Sequence record: PP358550
Strand: one strand, 5' to 3'
Origin: Escherichia phage FL04
Length of the DNA: 64,000 bases
Shown here in pieces: positions 6,408-64,000 of this stretch; within the stretch, counting starts at the first letter, position 1; the number at the start of each line of letters is the position of its first letter. The notes under the pieces were generated by a model. It was not told the origin of the DNA and ran no database searches. It saw only the letters and a list, made by a program, of their open reading frames with translations. Both the position numbers and the translations under genes were made by a program.

Positions 6408-6647
6408 ATGATGATTATTGATGAACTTGATAAACTGTTATGTTTAGATGCCATCGTAACATTCCATCGTGATAAAATTCACGCTGATTATGCACAACAT
6501 GTAATGTCTTTTCGACATAAAGTACAGTCGGTACAGGCGATGGAAAGTTTACTGATTAATGTTTGCAATTATCGGTCAACCAAATGCAATCTAGTGTTAG
6601 ATAAAAACGATCTGGAGTTATTCCGGCACATCGCGGAGGATATTTAA
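6408..6647 (+). CDS. hypothetical protein (79 aa)
   Basis: Tightly packed between upstream ORF and dexA. Confidence 0.5.
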   Translation: MMIIDELDKLLCLDAIVTFHRDKIHADYAQHVMSFRHKVQSVQAMESLLINVCNYRSTKCNLVLDKNDLELFRHIAEDI

Positions 6648-6648
6648 A

Positions 6649-7317
6649 ATGCTTCCAGTGGATTTAATGATTGACTTTGAAAGTTTAGGTTATCCGCCTG
6701 ATGGGGCGGTTATCAATATGGCGGCAATCGGATTTAAAGAAGATCCGCACAATCCACCTACATTTAAAGAACTGGTCGACAATTCCTTTCTGGTAAAATT
6801 TGATATTCCTTCCCAGAAAGGTGTAAGGGTGTTTGATCATGGTGTGGTTGAATGGTGGAAGAATACCGCCTCAGAAGGCATGAGAAAGCAATTAATCACA
6901 AATGGTACGGAAGTATCAACTAAAGAAGGTTTAGCGCGTTTTAACGCATTCTGTGAAGCCGTAGGAGTAGATCCGGTTAAATCCGTAATGTGGTCACGCG
7001 GTAATGCGTTTGATATTCCGTTACTAGTTGATATGATCCGCCGTGCACACAATACACGAGAGACGTTCAGCCTTGAACCTGTGCGATTCTGGAATATCCG
7101 AGATGTTCGCACCGCCATTGAGCGTACATTGATGCATCGCGGGATGTGTGAGTGTCCGTTACCAATGGGTACGCTAGATGGTTTTATCGCACATGATGCA
7201 ATTCATGATTGCGCTCGCGATATTCTTATGCTAATCTATGCACAACGTTATGCTATGGGTCTGGAAGACCTACCAGAAAATCCAGATCCAAATTCAGTTA
7301 AGAAACAAAGGGGATAA
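6649..7317 (+). CDS. dexA: exonuclease A (DexA, DnaQ-like 3-prime to 5-prime exonuclease)
   Basis: 222 aa; N-terminal DFESLG exonuclease motif, later HDAIHDC; T4 synteny (dda-dexA). Confidence 0.8.
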   Translation: MLPVDLMIDFESLGYPPDGAVINMAAIGFKEDPHNPPTFKELVDNSFLVKFDIPSQKGVRVFDHGVVEWWKNTASEGMRKQLITNGTEVSTKEGLARFNAFCEAVGVDPVKSVMWSRGNAFDIPLLVDMIRRAHNTRETFSLEPVRFWNIRDVRTAIERTLMHRGMCECPLPMGTLDGFIAHDAIHDCARDILMLIYAQRYAMGLEDLPENPDPNSVKKQRG

Positions 7318-7318
7318 T

Positions 7319-7492
7319 ATGCCATTATACGATTATTCTTGTGAAGAACACGGTCAATTTCAGAAAATCCGCAAAATTTCCGAACGTGAAAAGGCAGAAT
7401 GCCCTGAATGTGGTAAAGAATGCAAACAGGGATTAACTGCCCCGCGCGGTATTAATGGCGGGTACTATGATAAAAATGTGCGCGTGTCATGA
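7319..7492 (+). CDS. FmdB-like zinc-ribbon protein (57 aa)
   Basis: MPLYDYSCEEHGQF...CPECG pattern typical of FmdB-family Zn-ribbons; not in track at this start (track ORF starts further upstream). Confidence 0.5.
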   Translation: MPLYDYSCEEHGQFQKIRKISEREKAECPECGKECKQGLTAPRGINGGYYDKNVRVS

Positions 7493-7595
7493 GTCATATA
7501 CTTGACAATCACTCAATTTTTAATATGATTGTTGCAGCCGTCTTTGTGGCGGTTGCAGTAAGTTATGGTTATGTTATGTATTGGAGAGAGAAAAA

Positions 7596-8324
7596 GTGAA
7601 CATCAAAAAGTTTATTGTTGATGTTCTGGAGGCGAAAAGCGGAAATAGACTAAACTCAAATCTTTTTAAAGAAAATAAAATTCCAGAAATGGAAAAATTG
7701 TATCCTGCGGAATTTCAGATTATAAGGAATGAGTTTAAGTTCTGTAATGGAGGTCTCAGAAATCAACAACCATATAACGAGGCTGTTTATAGATTGCGCC
7801 ACGGAATAACAGGAAGAGTTAAATGTGCAAGATGCCCAAATCCTGTAAATTATCATACATACTCTAGAGGCTATCATAAATTTTGCTGTTCTCGTTGCGC
7901 ATCGTTGGACCAGGCACAAAACATAAAGATTGAACGAGAATGCGCTAAATGTGGTAAACCATTTGTTGCAATAAACGTATCTCAAAAGTATTGTTCTGAT
8001 GAGTGTCGATTGTTCGAGAAGCGAGAGCGAGAACTAGATAGGCCATATCATCATGCCGAAAATGGTATAAAAATATCAAAAAGAGAAGCGTTAGAAATTT
8101 TAGGCAGAGTTGACAATTGCGAGATATGCGGTGTAAAATTCATAAATGAACGATGCGGCGTGAGAAAACGCCAAAAGTGGAAACATCTTGACCATAATCA
8201 TAAGACTGGTAAGATAAGAGGTGTTCTTTGTGGAAAATGTAATGCCGGATTAGGGATGTTCAAAGACGATCCTCAAAGATTATATGCGGCATTGGAATAC
8301 CTGAAACGAACTGACGGAGAATGA
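7596..8324 (+). CDS. Endonuclease VII-domain (HNH-like) nuclease with N-terminal Cys-rich zinc-ribbon repeats; putative homing endonuclease
   Basis: C-terminal HLDHNHKTGKIRGVLCGKCNAGLG matches Endo VII catalytic motif; several CxxC pairs upstream; probable GTG start at 7596 after GGAGAGAG (track starts at TTG 7581). Confidence 0.7.
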   Translation: MNIKKFIVDVLEAKSGNRLNSNLFKENKIPEMEKLYPAEFQIIRNEFKFCNGGLRNQQPYNEAVYRLRHGITGRVKCARCPNPVNYHTYSRGYHKFCCSRCASLDQAQNIKIERECAKCGKPFVAINVSQKYCSDECRLFEKRERELDRPYHHAENGIKISKREALEILGRVDNCEICGVKFINERCGVRKRQKWKHLDHNHKTGKIRGVLCGKCNAGLGMFKDDPQRLYAALEYLKRTDGE

Positions 8325-8330
8325 TATAAT

Positions 8331-10154
8331 ATGTCTGAATTTTTGCTGTTAGATGATCGCGCTCACTGTCTTAAGAGACCTTCAATGTACATCGGGTCAA
8401 CGACTTATGAATCACACAATCGTTTCCTATTTGGAAAATGGACCAAAGTTTCATACGTTCCTGGTCTAGTTAAAATTATTGATGAAATTATCGACAATTC
8501 TGTAGACGAGGCGATCCGCACTAATTTTGAGTACGCTAATGTTATTAGTGTGGATATAAAAGATAACATTGTGTCAGTAACAGATAATGGTCGCGGTATT
8601 CCGCAACATATTGTTACGACGCCAGAAGGGAAACAGATTCCACAACCAGTTGCTGCATGGACACGAGCTAAAGCAGGGTCTAACTTTGATGATACAAATC
8701 GTGTTACTATGGGTATGAATGGGATCGGAAGCGCGCTCACATCATTTTTCTCGTCCTGGTTTACTGGTGTGACGTGTGACGGAGAGAATGAACTGACCGT
8801 TCAATGTACCAATGGTGCAGAAAATATTAGCTGGTCATCTAAGCCGTCAAAACTGAAAGGAACTAAGGTTACGTTCTGCCCCGATTTCGATCATTTTGAA
8901 GGTATGATCATGTCACAAGAAATTTCAGATGTAATTTGTGACCGTATGTATTCCTTAAGTGTAATCTTTCCTAAGATCACGTTTAAGTTTAATGGCAAAA
9001 AGATAACCAGCAAATTCAAGGATTATGCTAAACTATACAATGATGATCCGTTTGTCATTGAAGATAAAAACTTTTCACTTGCCCTAGTTCCTGCGGTTGA
9101 AGGTGAAGGTTTTAAATCAGTATCATTTGCTAATGGTCTGTTTACCAAAAACGGGGGAACACACGTTGATTATGTGACAGATGATCTTTGTGAAGAGATT
9201 GTAAAACGAATCAAGAAAGAATATAAGGTTGATGTTACTAAAGCTGCGGTTAAGTCTGGATTGACCTGTATTCTTATTGTTCGTGAATTGCCAAACCTCC
9301 GTTTTGATTCACAGACAAAAGAACGATTGACTAATCCAACTGGTGATATCAAGCGTCATATTGATCTTGATTTTAAAAAACTGGCTAAAGTCATTGCGAA
9401 GAAAGAAAACATTATCATGCCTATTATTGCTGTAGTCCTGGCACGCAAAGAGGCAGCAGATAAAGCGGCAGCGACTAAGGCAGCAAAGGCAGCGAAACGG
9501 GCTAAGGTGGCAAAACACGTTAAAGCTAACCTTATTGGAACTGACGCAGAAACTACCCTGTTTTTGACGGAAGGTGATTCCGCGATCAACTATCTGATCT
9601 CTGTACGTGATCAAGATTTACATGGCGGTTTCCCGTTGCGAGGCAAAACTCTTACAACGTGGGAACAACCGGAGGCAAAGATCGTTAAGAACGCCGAAAT
9701 TTTTAACATCATGGCGATCACTGGCTTGCAATTTGGTGTTGATGCATTGGAAGTTATGCAATACAAAAATATTGCGATTATGACAGACGCTGATACTGAC
9801 GGGATTGGGTCTATTAAGCCTAGTCTGATCTCTTTCTTTGCACGTTGGCCTGAATTGTTCGAAGATGGACGAATCCGGTTTATCAAAACACCTATTATCA
9901 TTGCGGAACCAAAGAAAGGTGATGATGTTCGATGGTATTATGACCTAGAAGATTTTGAGAACGACCGAGATAATATCAAAGGTTATAGCATTCGATATAT
10001 CAAAGGGTTAGCATCGCTTACAGAATCAGATTATCATCGCGTGATCAACGATCCTGTAATGGAAATCATCACGTTACCGGAAAACTATAAAGAGCTATTC
10101 GATTTGCTCTATAGTGAAGATGCAGATCAGCGCAAAATTTGGATGCAATCATAA
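8331..10154 (+). CDS. 39: DNA topoisomerase II large subunit gp39 (unsplit, GyrB-like ATPase)
   Basis: 607 aa; Bergerat ATPase motifs (IDEIIDNSVDEAIR, DNGRGIP), Toprim region (LTEGDSA, MTDADTDG); length matches a fused gp39+gp60 as in T2-type phages. Confidence 0.93.
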   Translation: MSEFLLLDDRAHCLKRPSMYIGSTTYESHNRFLFGKWTKVSYVPGLVKIIDEIIDNSVDEAIRTNFEYANVISVDIKDNIVSVTDNGRGIPQHIVTTPEGKQIPQPVAAWTRAKAGSNFDDTNRVTMGMNGIGSALTSFFSSWFTGVTCDGENELTVQCTNGAENISWSSKPSKLKGTKVTFCPDFDHFEGMIMSQEISDVICDRMYSLSVIFPKITFKFNGKKITSKFKDYAKLYNDDPFVIEDKNFSLALVPAVEGEGFKSVSFANGLFTKNGGTHVDYVTDDLCEEIVKRIKKEYKVDVTKAAVKSGLTCILIVRELPNLRFDSQTKERLTNPTGDIKRHIDLDFKKLAKVIAKKENIIMPIIAVVLARKEAADKAAATKAAKAAKRAKVAKHVKANLIGTDAETTLFLTEGDSAINYLISVRDQDLHGGFPLRGKTLTTWEQPEAKIVKNAEIFNIMAITGLQFGVDALEVMQYKNIAIMTDADTDGIGSIKPSLISFFARWPELFEDGRIRFIKTPIIIAEPKKGDDVRWYYDLEDFENDRDNIKGYSIRYIKGLASLTESDYHRVINDPVMEIITLPENYKELFDLLYSEDADQRKIWMQS

Positions 10155-57445: not shown

Positions 57446-57687
57446 AAAGAAAATTAATTAAACGCAATAAGGAATTTCTTAATAACTGCATTAAGGCCGC
57501 TAATGGTTGGCCTTTGTGCCTCTTCCTTTATGATTGGTATTCTAAACAATCGGCTGAGGAAGCACGACACTATAAGAAGATCAGAAAAGAATCATATACA
57601 AAACAAGGCCGCATTAATGGACTTTACTTAATGTGGCACGGCAAAGAACCTTCTAAAATCTGTGTTGGATTAAAGGGGCGTATATGA
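57442..57687 (+). CDS. hypothetical protein (81 aa, GTG start)
   Basis: GTG overlapping upstream stop; stop overlaps next ATG. Confidence 0.5.
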   Translation: MKRKLIKRNKEFLNNCIKAANGWPLCLFLYDWYSKQSAEEARHYKKIRKESYTKQGRINGLYLMWHGKEPSKICVGLKGRI

Positions 57688-58400
57688 AACAAAAATTAAT
57701 ATTCTGTAACTTTGACGGATCGGGGATAATGGGGCTAGAATGGGCTAAAGCAGGTCATAAGGTAGTCTGCTTTAATGCGGATGACGCCGACCACGGTACA
57801 TACAAAAAGTATAATACCAGATTTGAACACCCAAACATTACCTATGTAAACACATGGATTGATTTGAACTGGCTAGAAAGAGCAATGGACCTTGAATGGG
57901 GGAAACCGGATATTATCTTTGCATTCCCACCGTGCACCAATTTAGCTGTTAGTGGCGCTGCACACTTTGAACGAAAGAAACGAGAACAAGGACCATTGAT
58001 TCAAGTTCATGATGTAAGGGCAGCTAAAATAACCGCTTATTTGGGTGAATGGCTAGGAGTTCCCTACATGATAGAGAATCCTGTAAGCGTTATCTCTAGC
58101 ATGTGGCGTAAGCCTGATTACATGTTCCACCCGTGGGAATATGGCGGTTATTTGCCGGAAGATGATAAACATCCTACTTTTCCTGAGTATATCGCCGCCC
58201 GTGATATGTACCCGAAAAAGACTTGCTTATGGACCGGACAAGGCTTTATAATGCCAGAAAAGAAACCGTTGCAGATTAATAAAGGGTACAGTAAACAGCA
58301 TTCTAAGCTAGGCGGGAAAGGAACGAAAACAAAGACTATCAGGTCACTTACCCCGCGAGGATTCGCAAAGGCAGTATTTGAAGCAAATAAGGATCTATGA
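57684..58400 (+). CDS. C5-cytosine methyltransferase-like protein (minimal catalytic core, no obvious target-recognition domain)
   Basis: 238 aa; motif I-like FCNFDGSGIMGLEWAKAGHKVVCFNADD, motif IV-like IIFAFPPCTNLAVSGAA (Pro-Cys), motif VI-like YMIENPVS; no recognisable motif VIII/TRD. Confidence 0.6.
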   Translation: MKQKLIFCNFDGSGIMGLEWAKAGHKVVCFNADDADHGTYKKYNTRFEHPNITYVNTWIDLNWLERAMDLEWGKPDIIFAFPPCTNLAVSGAAHFERKKREQGPLIQVHDVRAAKITAYLGEWLGVPYMIENPVSVISSMWRKPDYMFHPWEYGGYLPEDDKHPTFPEYIAARDMYPKKTCLWTGQGFIMPEKKPLQINKGYSKQHSKLGGKGTKTKTIRSLTPRGFAKAVFEANKDL

Positions 58401-58735: not shown

Positions 58736-58910
58736 TAACACCACAACTACACGGTAAAGAGATTTGCGATCTTACTTGGGAAGAGTTGGTCATGTATCGC
58801 GACACCTACAAATGGTTTGAATCCATGAAAGAATTTGTAGCAGCAGTACGAGAAGAAATGAGCATTCGCCAGTATGCGGACGCATATATTGAAAAGGTAA
58901 GCACACTATG
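58731..58910 (+). CDS. hypothetical small protein (59 aa)
   Basis: Overlapping start/stop with neighbours; not in track. Confidence 0.4.
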
Positions 58911-59426
58911 AACCGTTTAACGCCTAAACGCCGTTACTATACCAATACTAAAAACTTTGTCATCTCTGTTTATGAGGCGTGGTTAGAAGATGGCTTTATC
59001 AACATGAACCCAGATTATCAGCGTCCTTTGGTATGGGACACCGAAAACAAACGTATGTTTATCGAAAACCTGATTAATGATTTTCCGGTTGGTGCTATCG
59101 CAATGGCTAAGATTGATGATGGCTCTCGCTATGAGATCGAAATCGTGGACGGTAAACAGCGTTTAAACGCAATATTCTCCTTCATGAAGGATGAGTTTAG
59201 CATTGCTGGTAATGATGATTCTATGTTGTATTACAGTGATTTTACGCCAGCAGAAAAGCGACGTTTCCGAAATCTCGGACTACCCGCGATCATGATGGAA
59301 GAGAGCACACGAGAAGACCGATTAGAGTATTTCTACAAAACAAACTTTTTCGGTGTGCCTCAATCGGAAGAACATCGCCAGCATGTGATTGCCCTATTGC
59401 AAGATGAGCAATTAAAAAATAACTAA
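58908..59426 (+). CDS. stand-alone DUF262 / ParB-like (GmrS N-terminal type) domain protein
   Basis: 172 aa; DYQRPLVW and VDGKQRLNAIF (DGQQR-like) motifs; start overlaps upstream stop. Confidence 0.6.
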   Translation: MNRLTPKRRYYTNTKNFVISVYEAWLEDGFINMNPDYQRPLVWDTENKRMFIENLINDFPVGAIAMAKIDDGSRYEIEIVDGKQRLNAIFSFMKDEFSIAGNDDSMLYYSDFTPAEKRRFRNLGLPAIMMEESTREDRLEYFYKTNFFGVPQSEEHRQHVIALLQDEQLKNN

Positions 59427-59433
59427 AAAGTTG

Positions 59434-59462
59434 TTGACAGGGGATCATCGATCCCCTATAAT
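59434..59462 (+). promoter_or_regulatory. PeSL-type early promoter with palindromic spacer
   Basis: TTGACA-GGGGATCATCGATCCCC-TATAAT. Confidence 0.65.
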
Positions 59463-59496
59463 ACACACATACCGAAACGAACTAGGAGAATCAAAC

Positions 59497-59676
59497 ATGA
59501 AACACTTAACCATCGAATCGGCAATCATCGCAATCGCTAAAGTTCAAGCGGCTTATAATTGCACTGACATTGAAGCCATTTCAAAAATGCAAGCAGAAGC
59601 AGCAAAAGCGGGTGACGAGAAATCTTTAGATGTTCTCTGCGAAATCAAAGCAGAATTGATTTCAAAAATGTTCTAA
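59497..59676 (+). CDS. hypothetical small protein (59 aa)
   Basis: AGGAGAATCAAACATG. Confidence 0.5.
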   Translation: MKHLTIESAIIAIAKVQAAYNCTDIEAISKMQAEAAKAGDEKSLDVLCEIKAELISKMF

Positions 59677-59682
59677 AAGTTG

Positions 59683-59717
59683 TTGACATAACAGAGGGTG
59701 TATATCATAATACACCC
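59683..59717 (+). promoter_or_regulatory. PeSL-type early promoter (hairpin GGGTGTA/TACACCC around -10)
   Basis: TTGACA-17-CATAAT. Confidence 0.65.
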
Positions 59718-59747: not shown

Positions 59748-59960
59748 ATGGCTAACATCGAAATCATCATTACCGACGTAACTTATGACCGCATTAACGA
59801 AATCGGTACTGCATTACTGGAAGATGGAACAACTCGTACCATCAACTACGCAGAATACGTTGAAATGCGCGGTTGTATTAAACGAGTAGGAAAATATATC
59901 CTGATTGAAAAAGACTATTCAGGATACACCTTAGAGCAATTGCTCGATGGTGCATTATAA
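59748..59960 (+). CDS. hypothetical protein (70 aa)
   Basis: Starts MANIE like ORF 57194; followed by terminator. Confidence 0.6.
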   Translation: MANIEIIITDVTYDRINEIGTALLEDGTTRTINYAEYVEMRGCIKRVGKYILIEKDYSGYTLEQLLDGAL

Positions 59961-59965
59961 TAAAT

Positions 59966-59987
59966 GGGGGCGTTAAGCCCCTTTTTC
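59966..59987 (+). terminator. rho-independent terminator
   Basis: GGGGC-GTTAA-GCCCC hairpin plus TTTTT. Confidence 0.7.
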
Positions 59988-60027
59988 ATAAATATAGGTT
60001 TATAGGTTATCAACTAGAGGATATAAA

Positions 60028-62096: not shown

Positions 62097-62125
62097 TTGA
62101 CTCAAACGGGGACTAGTTTTATACT
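62097..62125 (+). promoter_or_regulatory. early promoter overlapping a hairpin/terminator after alt
   Basis: TTGACT-17-TATACT; imperfect inverted repeat CGGGGACTAGT/ACTAGCCCCG followed by TTTTCTG. Confidence 0.55.
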
Positions 62126-62157
62126 AGCCCCGTTTTCTGTTATATGGGAGGTTTAAA

Positions 62158-62982
62158 ATGTTCAAGAAATTACAGGATTTTCGTCTTTCAGAAGAATCAC
62201 GCGAATCAATGATGGAACGTATGGATAATTACATCGAAACATATGACATTGAGGGGATTAATGGTTACATGATCACTGAGATGATCAGCGATCAGATTAA
62301 CTTTGATGATTATGTGAAGGTTATCCGCTTCCTTGAGCGCGAGACACAAGATTATGGATTTGTCAAGAAAATCATTAATGTGATGTATGAAGTACACTCC
62401 GAAGACTTTGGAGATAATGTATTCAAACATTACAAACATAACAACATAACCCCAGCAGAATATAATGCAATCTGTGATTATGTGTCTGAACAATACGAAT
62501 GGGTAAATGGTGCTCTCTTAGGGGAAGAAGACATGACCGATGAGATATCAGAGATTGTTGATTTGATGGATTGTGTCATGGATAAAACCGAAAAGTTAAA
62601 CGGTACTCTTTATCGAGGTCAACATCTTGACATTCAGACAATAGAGCGTATCATTGAAGATAAGGAGTTTACCTTTAAAAACTTTGTATCTACCAGCATG
62701 ACACCGATCATCTTTGGAGGATGGCTATCAAACAGCACTAGCCTTTATTGTGAGAATCGATATGAATCAATGACCGGAAAGATGCAACATTCTTGTAATG
62801 TATCATGGGTAATTGACGTAAAAGATCATAAAGGTTTTGTTGTTGGGTCAATTGCATGGAACCCTTGCGAATGTGAAGTAATTTTACCGCGAGGGACTTG
62901 CGTCAAGGTAAACGACGTAGTAGAATCTTTCGGCGATGAGAATCGTAGACAATTTACAATTTTCGGTGAGGTGACTAAATGA
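62158..62982 (+). CDS. Alt-like ADP-ribosyltransferase paralog (274 aa)
   Basis: LYRGQ, FVSTSMTPIIFGGW, CECEVILPRGT mirror the Alt catalytic motifs. Confidence 0.65.
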   Translation: MFKKLQDFRLSEESRESMMERMDNYIETYDIEGINGYMITEMISDQINFDDYVKVIRFLERETQDYGFVKKIINVMYEVHSEDFGDNVFKHYKHNNITPAEYNAICDYVSEQYEWVNGALLGEEDMTDEISEIVDLMDCVMDKTEKLNGTLYRGQHLDIQTIERIIEDKEFTFKNFVSTSMTPIIFGGWLSNSTSLYCENRYESMTGKMQHSCNVSWVIDVKDHKGFVVGSIAWNPCECEVILPRGTCVKVNDVVESFGDENRRQFTIFGEVTK

Positions 62983-63464
62983 AAATGATTAAACTGATTG
63001 GTCTTGCGGCTGCATTCATGCTTACTGGTTGTGCCAACATGGAAGCTATGATGAATGCTAAATCAGATCCGGTTTTCTTGCTTCGTGAATGTAAAGCAGC
63101 ATATGCAAGTGATGATCAGATCGAATCATGCTTTATTTCTAAAATGGAACGTCGAGACGTGGATCGCGTTAAAGTTGGTTTAGCACCACAAACGCAGATG
63201 TTCAAGGATGCAATCAAAGAAGCGCGGGAAGAGAAAGCACAAGAAGAAAAGAAGCGTCAAGAAGAATTGCGCAAGCAGAAAGAAGAGTCTATACAACTTG
63301 AGAAGATGAAAGCGCGGGATCGCTGTATTATCATGTCTGACATGCAGATAGAGCAAGAAGCAAGAAAGGCAGCATTAAACGGTGATTATGACCGTTATGA
63401 AGAACTTAACAGCGCAGAATTTCAAACTAAGGCACTAAAATATTGCAATGATTTAGCAAAATAA
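62979..63464 (+). CDS. putative lipoprotein with coiled-coil region
   Basis: 161 aa; signal peptide with lipobox LTGC; K/E-rich central region. Confidence 0.6.
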   Translation: MKMIKLIGLAAAFMLTGCANMEAMMNAKSDPVFLLRECKAAYASDDQIESCFISKMERRDVDRVKVGLAPQTQMFKDAIKEAREEKAQEEKKRQEELRKQKEESIQLEKMKARDRCIIMSDMQIEQEARKAALNGDYDRYEELNSAEFQTKALKYCNDLAK

Positions 63465-63467
63465 AAA

Positions 63468-63486
63468 GGCGGGGATAATCCCCGCC
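63468..63486. terminator. bidirectional terminator between convergent genes
   Basis: GGCGGGGA-TAA-TCCCCGCC hairpin flanked by AAAAA and TTTCGTTT. Confidence 0.65.
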
Positions 63487-63495
63487 TTTCGTTTA

Positions 63496-64000
63496 TCAGA
63501 ACCAGTTAGTGACAGTATTCACCACACGTCCACCAACGCCATTTAGACGCGATAAAGCATTACCAGCAGCAGATAACCCACTATCAAGTAAATTATTGCC
63601 GAAAGTGTTTGTTATTGCGTTTATTGCCTTATCCTCAATCCATTCTCGCGCGGCTTGCTCTCCTACAGCACCAGTTTGCATAGTCCTATACGCAAAAGTA
63701 ACATCGAATGTTGTAATTTCGTTGTTGTTTTCATAGGTTAATTCCGGTGCACTCACACCAACAGGAACACAACCATTAAACATCATGATCGTGTGAGGAA
63801 CTCCCATTCGGTTATGTAAGTTAACCTGAATATCTGCTTCAACGTCAACAGGAAGCGCACGAAGCCCTGTAACTGGGTCTTCTACTGAGTTAACCCAATC
63901 CTGCATTGCTCTATAGTTTGATGCGCTAGAGTCCATTCTAAAGCTCAATACAAGCGGATCAAAATCACGTCCGGTAATTCGAATGTTTGGCGCATTGTGG
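63496..64000 (-). CDS. late structural protein, 3-prime part only (gene continues past window end); possibly tail-tube/baseplate family gp54 by synteny with alt
   Basis: Frame open on - strand from 64000 down to stop at 63496; convergent with alt operon; identity not verified. Confidence 0.4.
   Translation of the reverse strand, partial: HNAPNIRITGRDFDPLVLSFRMDSSASNYRAMQDWVNSVEDPVTGLRALPVDVEADIQVNLHNRMGVPHTIMMFNGCVPVGVSAPELTYENNNEITTFDVTFAYRTMQTGAVGEQAAREWIEDKAINAITNTFGNNLLDSGLSAAGNALSRLNGVGGRVVNTVTNWF

Follow-up and report, generated by a model that had tools for sequence, protein, structure and literature searches.

The described systems closest to the gene examined here are proteins that phages send to the envelope of the infected cell. 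Llp of T5 and Cor of T1, phi80 and N15 are lipoproteins that inactivate FhuA, and Ltp of the temperate Streptococcus thermophilus phage TP-J34 is a lipoprotein that blocks DNA injection and possesses an all-helical extracytoplasmic domain. T4 encodes Spackle (Sp, gp61.3), a soluble periplasmic protein of 75 residues that is cleaved by signal peptidase I and targets the gp5 lysozyme, and Imm, an inner-membrane protein with transmembrane helices. On the host side, Braun's lipoprotein (Lpp) consists of a lipid anchor, a helical rod whose length approximates the distance between the outer membrane and the peptidoglycan, and a C-terminal lysine. The internal-protein genes of T-even phages are reportedly cassettes in which a conserved N-terminal leader, a capsid-targeting signal in that case, serves as a recombination handle for a polymorphic mature protein. 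Here we describe a gene at positions 62979–63464 (+ strand) of a 64,000-nt stretch of Escherichia phage FL04 DNA (sequence record PP358550; the whole stretch is hereafter the window), whose product of 161 amino acids is a predicted phage lipoprotein and whose mature part occurs as three alleles that are exchanged as a cassette between conserved signal-peptide codons and the 3' end of the gene.

The FL04 protein is of a known kind, a phage-encoded envelope lipoprotein, that lies outside all known families and whose fold is unmatched. Like Llp and Cor, it is encoded by a phage, possesses a lipobox, is predicted to be sorted to the outer membrane and is probably made early by a virulent phage, but it has no similarity to them past the signal peptide, is about twice their size with an all-helical rod, and its gene is neither linked to nor co-varies with that of the receptor-binding protein. 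It resembles Spackle and Imm in being a helical protein that is encoded by a T4-type phage and has a signal peptide that should send it to the envelope. However, it keeps a lipobox where Spackle is soluble, its hhalign alignment with Spackle (probability 11%) covers the signal peptide only, and it has none of the transmembrane helices of Imm. A predicted lipid anchor, a helical rod of that order of length and a C-terminal lysine are also features of Lpp, from which the FL04 protein differs in having no homology in the mature part, no heptad seam, four extra cysteines and small predicted end domains. Ltp belongs to a phage of a Gram-positive host, whereas the FL04 phage infects a Gram-negative one. 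The FL04 leader is a signal for lipoprotein export instead of capsid targeting, and, unlike the T-even internal-protein cassettes, the FL04 alleles are still homologous and adopt one common fold in AlphaFold2 models.

The window is DNA of an RB49-like, T4-type coliphage of the genus Krischvirus, and the 161-amino-acid product that the initial annotation placed in this interval is exactly what is found there. Its open reading frame (ORF) begins with an ATG that overlaps the TGA of the preceding 274-amino-acid gene (ATGA), as read directly, and a GAGGTG Shine-Dalgarno sequence is located 5 nt 5' of this ATG. The product, which is 100% identical in RB49 (record OZ035808), Phi1, Cognac, ECD7 and other phages, is a member of PHROG 16112, a family of its own with no assigned function. 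In the original RB49 record the gene is RB49ORF182c, a 'hypothetical protein', and in phage W115 it is annotated as 'putative lipoprotein'; the gene is already in the databases under these names, and its three-allele cassette structure is the new finding. No paper that treats the gene was found in the literature, and a passage of Arbiol et al. (2010; PMC2839356) counts 'ORF 182' as one of the ORFs that have database associations with islands, plasmids or integrons. The gene is present in each of the 58 Krischvirus genomes searched (a Krischvirus gp5 occurs in 59 records, of which one is a fragment with gene 5 only). The ratio of nonsynonymous to synonymous substitutions (dN/dS) is 0.11 in the mature part of allele A, the FL04 type, which indicates purifying selection similar to that on gp29, and homologues fall into about 50 clusters. 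Because of this ratio and these clusters the ORF is judged to be coding, and the gene is both real and well conserved among RB49-like coliphages.

The product is predicted, from a conserved lipoprotein signal, to be exported and lipid-anchored. Bacterial lipoprotein signals combine a charged n-region, a hydrophobic h-region and the PROSITE-type motif [LVI][ASTVI][GAS]C, with the cysteine within residues 15–35. The FL04 N-terminus, MKMIKLIGLAAAFMLTGC, has every sequence feature of this Lgt/LspA substrate pattern: K2 and K5, an uncharged hydrophobic stretch and the lipobox L15-T16-G17-C18, with its cysteine at position 18. The LTGC lipobox named in the initial annotation is borne out by the aligned relatives, since the signal peptide and lipobox are kept in 26 of 26 and G17 and C18 are invariant in all of them, down to 28% identity. 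Residue +2 is Ala in 25 of these sequences, Ser in the remaining one and Asp in none. In E. coli, Asp at +2 is the Lol-avoidance signal. As +2 is never Asp, Lol should deliver the lipoprotein to the outer membrane.

Only two annotated genes in the entire W115 genome were found to encode a lipobox motif, that of the lipoprotein and that of an o-spanin candidate, a proline-rich protein whose gene adjoins that of polynucleotide kinase, the location of the spanin genes in T4. This second protein bears on whether the FL04 lipoprotein could itself be a lysis component, either an o-spanin or a unimolecular spanin (u-spanin), a reading that is barely conceivable. The protein is a lipoprotein, as o-spanins are expected to be, and weakly matches Rz-like spanins in PHROG (E 0.2–0.33), but these matches are confined to residues 1–43. 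T4-type separated spanin genes have been assigned in RB49, Phi1 and JSE (PMC6139136), and in W115 the proline-rich lipobox protein and a second membrane protein adjoin the polynucleotide kinase gene in the manner of T4 pseT.2/pseT.3. The FL04 protein also lacks the C-terminal transmembrane segment of a u-spanin of the T1 gp11 type, and with 144 mature residues that are helical and not proline-rich, and no i-spanin neighbour, it does not resemble o-spanins such as Rz1 and PseT.2.

Three alleles of the gene are found among the 58 Krischvirus records. Allele A, whose members are at least 95% identical, is present in 50 records, allele B1 in two (Whisky and JK32) and allele B2 in six (PHB13, E26, 011D4, AV108, G37-3 and PTE-Eco09). 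The amino acid sequence identity of the mature part is 22–31% between A and either B allele and ~47% between B1 and B2. All that the three have in common are scaffold residues (four Cys, two Gly, D60 and S145), while their surfaces have diverged. When PHB13 is compared with an allele-A phage, the flanks are 96–100% identical, identity drops at about codon 15 and recovers about five codons before the stop, which amounts to a clean swap of roughly 430 bp. The same swap is found in the metagenomic loci L004 and L005, where gp54, gp48 and gp29 are 98–99% identical and alt and the adjacent ADP-ribosyltransferase gene 96–97% identical. The left breakpoint lies within codons 15–22 in Whisky, in locus L003 and in PHB13/JK32. 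In loci L011 and L013, synonymous divergence is ~0.2–0.3 in alt and the ADP-ribosyltransferase gene, ~1.0–1.2 in the mature lipoprotein and 0.8–1.5 from there through gp29, and the signal-peptide codons have intermediate values of 0.29 and 0.55. The breakpoints and the intermediate divergence together identify the signal-peptide codons as a recurrent recombination boundary, and the mature part is exchanged as a cassette between these conserved codons and the 3' end. Within allele A, no bulk positive selection is seen at the dN/dS given above.

No phage gene tested co-varies with the allele class. Co-variation with the gp5 lysozyme is ruled out, as identity of gp5 is 98.8% or higher throughout the records, those of B1 and B2 carriers among them. 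A gp5 inhibitor would not need three forms against a target so uniform throughout the genus, and the allele pattern therefore disfavours a Spackle-like inhibitor tuned to gp5. Co-variation with the baseplate hub, which Whisky had suggested, is also ruled out: gp54, gp48 and gp29 are 93–100% identical to the RB49 type beside a B allele in PHB13 and in L004, and the linkage in Whisky is therefore physical hitch-hiking. The adhesin gp38 fares no better as a partner, because its classes are uncoupled from the allele classes. One gp38 class, ~83% identical to that of W115, is found with allele A (Sf20, GEC-3S and Makalu), with B1 (JK32) and with B2 (E26, PHB13 and 011D4), and allele A is found with two gp38 classes. 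A published comparison that covers RB49, Cognac, Whisky and Brandy agrees, as it places Whisky gp38 close to that of RB49, although the lipoprotein allele differs (PMC9569957). With no co-varying phage partner found, a host envelope target or a scaffold-only role is left.

These results bear directly on receptor masking as known from T5 Llp or T1/phi80 Cor, in which the lipoprotein would bind the phage's own outer-membrane receptor from the periplasm, block adsorption and spare the loss of progeny on debris. A phage lipoprotein with predicted outer-membrane sorting and predicted early synthesis would suit such a role, and PHROG 1119 (Cor) does match weakly (E 0.0074), but the match is restricted to residues 1–45, the signal peptide region. 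In W115 the lipoprotein gene, at 111.9 kb, is ~66 kb away from gp38, at 45.4 kb. A, B1 and B2 share one gp38 class (in Sf20, JK32 and E26/PHB13 alike, gp38 has 83% identity to that of W115), allele A is found with two classes, and Whisky combines a gp38 near that of RB49 with a different allele. The known primary receptors moreover include O antigens, which are unreachable from the periplasm (PMC9569957). The allele pattern thus disfavours Llp- or Cor-style masking that is tuned to the receptor-binding protein of the phage itself, and we regard receptor masking as distinctly unlikely.

Two further observations were made on the hub module next to the lipoprotein gene. By far the most variable baseplate-hub protein is the tape-measure/hub protein gp29, with 67–78% amino acid identity within the genus vs. 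at least 98.8% for gp5 (seen in L001 (Whisky) 6517–8195, L002, L011, L013, L022 and L023); in Whisky it is annotated as two coding sequences. In addition, the alt region, which is nearly identical, meets the divergent hub module at a sharp mosaic boundary.

The mature part, of 143–144 residues, is all-helical in an AlphaFold2 model that was built from the 26-sequence alignment and has a mean predicted local distance difference test score (pLDDT) of 88.7. Helices are predicted at residues 17–27, 31–41, 45–65, 72–133, 137–143 and 146–158, of which the fourth is a single helix of 62 residues and ~90 Å. A separate AlphaFold2 model of the Whisky allele (B1, ~30% identical) has the same helix order with a 63-residue long helix (pLDDT 86.7). 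The K/E-rich helical segment that the initial annotation described corresponds to this one continuous helix, in which residues 83–110 are 64% charged; natural length variants (-5, -7, -15 and +11 residues) all fall within its charged centre. The accompanying description of the segment as a coiled coil is not supported. In the best heptad register only 6 of 14 strong hydrophobic residues occupy a/d positions, the numbers of strong hydrophobic residues per heptad along residues 72–133 are 2, 1, 0, 1, 1, 2, 4, 2 and 1, with 0–1 in each of the central three heptads, and no continuous a/d hydrophobic seam is found along these residues. Enrichment of i/i+4 charge pairs, as in single alpha-helix domains, is not significant in allele A (p = 0.29) and marginal in B1 (p = 0.044). 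The models and these counts point to a long, solvent-exposed charged helix.

Besides Cys18, the cysteines at positions 38, 51, 116 and 156 are invariant in the 26-sequence alignment, as are D60, G67, G135 and S145. From the positions of these cysteines in the predicted helices, C38–C51 and C116–C156 could each form a disulfide that closes a helical hairpin, one at either end of the rod. The sequence contains no transmembrane or hydrophobic segment after residue 18, and the C-terminus (...KALKYCNDLAK) is polar and charged. Of 26 family members, 25 end in Lys, which always lies 4–5 residues after the last invariant Cys; the Whisky allele ends in Asn.

This architecture recalls Lpp, and the lipoprotein might therefore be an Lpp-like tether or envelope stabiliser, a lipid-anchored rod that contacts the peptidoglycan, or is cross-linked to it via the C-terminal Lys, and so reinforces or re-spaces the envelope until lysis. 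An N-terminal lipid anchor, a helical rod of ~90 Å and a C-terminal Lys match the design of Braun's lipoprotein, the terminal Lys is nearly universal in the family, and rod length varies by indels confined to the charged centre. On the other hand, an hhalign comparison with E. coli Lpp aligns the signal peptide only, the heptad seam that an Lpp-like trimer would need is missing, the putative disulfide-stapled end domains have no counterpart in Lpp, and the Whisky allele lacks the terminal Lys. In E. coli, L,D-transpeptidases are not known to cross-link any protein other than Lpp, which also counts against such a tether, and we consider it unlikely. A more specific version, in which the lipoprotein is a phage-made mimic of Braun's lipoprotein whose Lys becomes attached to peptidoglycan and which is made early to re-tether or re-space the envelope, is highly unlikely. 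If such a mimic did exist, the infected cell would become refractory to penetration or lysis from without by later phages, and the three cassettes would be alternative solutions kept by phage–phage or phage–host competition.

The family is small and closed. Scans of the lipoprotein against Pfam, NCBIfam and PADLOC give nothing above noise, the best PADLOC match being weak and of low complexity (E 0.005), and searches of PDB sequences with full-length and mature-only profiles find no match. Foldseek searches of the PDB with the models of alleles A and B1 give best E values of 0.67 and 0.85, i.e., no fold match, and against BFVD they return the protein's own family only. All seven clusters that phmmer finds among 1.84 billion representative proteins, and all 46 proteins found with a mature-only profile, also belong to the family. 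In these searches it has no relatives outside RB49-like phages. The name 'outer membrane protein assembly factor', which one source gives for P0039, is supported by none of them. At the same position T4 carries unrelated genes: alt.-3 has no signal peptide and shows no similarity, and alt.-1 and alt.-2 are remnants of an alt duplication.

Based on these features, we tentatively propose that the lipoprotein may be an envelope-conversion factor that shields the infected cell from secondary phage attack, i.e., from superinfection or lysis from without; such confidence as we have rests mostly on the molecular description and not on the function. The lipoprotein would be made early in infection and lipidated by the host Lgt, LspA and Lnt, the Lol system would place it in the inner leaflet of the outer membrane by virtue of Ala or Ser at +2, and DsbA would form its disulfides; invariant extra cysteines are as expected for an oxidising compartment. 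It would then bind a component of the host envelope from the periplasmic side. As the allele class is uncoupled from gp38, gp5, gp54, gp48 and gp29, protection would not rely on matching the phage's own adhesin or tail-tip proteins. A tblastn search of the complete W115 genome reveals no homologue of T4 Imm or Sp (best E values of 4 and 0.049, respectively), and the Sp match lies inside gene 41 (primase-helicase) and is probably spurious. Protection from secondary infection therefore has no recognisable provider in W115, for which the lipoprotein is a reasonable candidate. Superinfection exclusion, already raised in the initial annotation with receptor masking or blocked DNA entry as possible mechanisms, is a reasonable guess, with which the conserved sigma-70 promoter of early type and the predicted periplasmic location are also consistent.

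Several points weigh against this proposal. In the searches described above, no known exclusion protein matches the lipoprotein in sequence or fold, and early timing is predicted from promoter anatomy. Small proteins that have diverged strongly may escape tblastn, so that little weight can be put on the failure to find Imm and Sp. Nor are deeply diverged alleles that lack a co-varying phage partner a specific prediction of exclusion; they would be expected just as much of a counter-defence factor or of a structural rod under loose constraint.

By analogy with the T-even internal-protein cassettes, the lipoprotein might be a periplasmic effector of counter-defence or host manipulation, in which the variable surface is driven by a polymorphic envelope factor of the host or a prophage, or by escape from recognition, and the conserved leader doubles as a recombination handle. 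The pattern of conserved scaffold residues and diverged surfaces would suit such an effector, as would breakpoints inside the signal-peptide codons in several independent comparisons, the lack of co-variation with any phage gene tested, and neighbours that are host-takeover genes (alt, the ADP-ribosyltransferase gene and a gene for a GmrSD_N-domain protein). It is harder to reconcile with the dN/dS within allele A, which shows no bulk positive selection; no periplasmic defence target has been identified, and the PADLOC match is the weak one of low complexity mentioned above. An effector of this type is not very likely in our view.

The gene is of interest because RB49-like phages are used in therapy cocktails and about half of their genes are unassigned. 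Universal in the genus, probably early and predicted to be envelope-directed, it is a concrete candidate for the handling of secondary infection or for conditioning of the envelope. The cassette also illustrates cleanly, in nature, how a targeting signal can serve as a recombination handle: a conserved leader for export is followed by a mature domain that can be interchanged and by a terminator that is again conserved. The three natural alleles are ready-made allele swaps for experiments.

The lipoprotein gene is the second cistron of a two-gene unit in which a PeSL element is followed by a 274-amino-acid paralogue of Alt, the lipoprotein and a terminator (Table 1). The order of small ADP-ribosyltransferase gene, lipoprotein gene and converging gene 54 is kept in every locus recovered. 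The initial annotation placed the lipoprotein gene at the end of the alt operon, and it is indeed downstream of alt, but a separate promoter/stem-loop between alt and the 274-amino-acid gene sets the two-gene unit apart, so that the lipoprotein gene is not simply the tail of that operon. As the unit possesses its own sigma-70 promoter/stem-loop and terminator, the lipoprotein is probably expressed early in infection.

Table 1. Features of the lipoprotein locus and its surroundings in the FL04 window.
Feature	Position	Strand	Evidence and remarks
Late-promoter-like sequence CATAAATA	59987–59994	+	33 nt 5' of the alt ATG; follows a terminator-like hairpin at 59966–59982
alt, packaged RNA-polymerase ADP-ribosyltransferase, 683 amino acids	60028–62079	+	PHROG 802, E 1.9e-179; PF03496; 'alt' in RB49
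Sigma-70-type promoter of PeSL element, TTGACT-17-TATACT	62097–62125	+	Promoter scan, 10/12 matches
PeSL stem-loop over the -10 box, then UUUUCU	62104–62139	+	Minimum free energy -18.9 kcal/mol, z = -5.6
ADP-ribosyltransferase RB49ORF183c, 274 amino acids, paralogue of the Alt C-terminal domain	62158–62982	+	PF03496, E 4e-16; PHROG 15144
Lipoprotein gene RB49ORF182c, 161 amino acids	62979–63464	+	ORF; PHROG 16112; start overlaps upstream stop (ATGA)
Predicted lipoprotein signal peptide, residues 1–18	62979–63032	+	Lipobox at 63021–63032; recombination of the cassette has its left boundary here
Mature, allele-specific part, allele A	63035–63448	+	Invariant Cys38 (63090), Cys51 (63129), Cys116 (63324) and Cys156 (63444)
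Predicted single long helix, residues 72–133	63192–63377	+	AlphaFold2; charged centre, residues 83–110, at 63225–63308
Bidirectional intrinsic terminator, common to converging gene 54	63465–63490	.	-19.6 kcal/mol (+), -20.8 kcal/mol (-), z ~ -5; also found by terminator scan
Gene 54, 3' part, baseplate tail-tube initiator, converging	63496–64000	-	PHROG 45, E 7e-41; PF06841; 'gene 54' in RB49 and W115; runs off the window end

The PeSL element upstream of the unit is assigned by its anatomy, which is that of other PeSL cassettes: an AT-rich upstream region, a near-consensus sigma-70 promoter, a GC-rich stem-loop over the -10 box, and then a Shine-Dalgarno sequence and a start codon. Roughly 50 PeSLs have been listed in phi1/RB49, and copies other than the one described here were shown by experiment to be strong sigma-70 promoters and terminators (PMC2839356). 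Both promoter hexamers are invariant in nine loci, including those in which the coding sequence is 44–62% identical, and the GC-rich stem is kept by compensatory changes in L006–L008, where the ADP-ribosyltransferase is only 44–62% identical. We infer that the stem-loop attenuates read-through from alt. Two further PeSL-type elements are found upstream of alt on the + strand. One (59434–59462) has a perfect TTGACA-17-TATAAT whose spacer contains a GGGGATC...GATCCCC palindrome and precedes an ORF at 59494–59676, and the other (59683–59711) has TTGACA-17-CATAAT with a hairpin over the -10 box and precedes an ORF at 59748–59960; neither of these small ORFs matches a Pfam family.

The late-promoter core ATAAATA is observed only 4 times in the whole window, where shuffled sequences give an expectation of 22 +/- 5, and alt probably has a late promoter because CATAAATA is among these four. 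Such a depletion could reflect selection that removes spurious late promoters from a region of mostly early genes. The R / S-T-S / E-x-E motifs are intact in the translation of the 274-amino-acid ADP-ribosyltransferase, whose paralogy with Alt has been remarked before (PMC1524935). As a ModB homologue is encoded elsewhere in Krischvirus (W115 9476–9979), these phages encode at least three ADP-ribosyltransferases.

Among tandem repeats and Rfam families, nothing meaningful is found in the region of the lipoprotein gene; an Rfam match to the Brucella small RNA CI337 (63412–63491, +) lies over the terminator, scores 22 bits vs. a gathering score of 229 and is almost certainly due to chance. Farther upstream, an ORF of 238 amino acids at 57684–58400 (+) contains motifs (FDGSG..., FPPC... 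and ENP) that by eye resemble those of cytosine-5 DNA methyltransferases, with no Pfam match at E < 0.01. It is followed at 58908–59426 (+) by a gene for a protein of 172 amino acids that matches the N-terminal (DUF262) domain of the restriction endonuclease GmrSD (PF03235, E 5e-20) and has no nuclease domain. The position of this gene is kept in related loci, and its product could be a decoy or an anti-defence protein.

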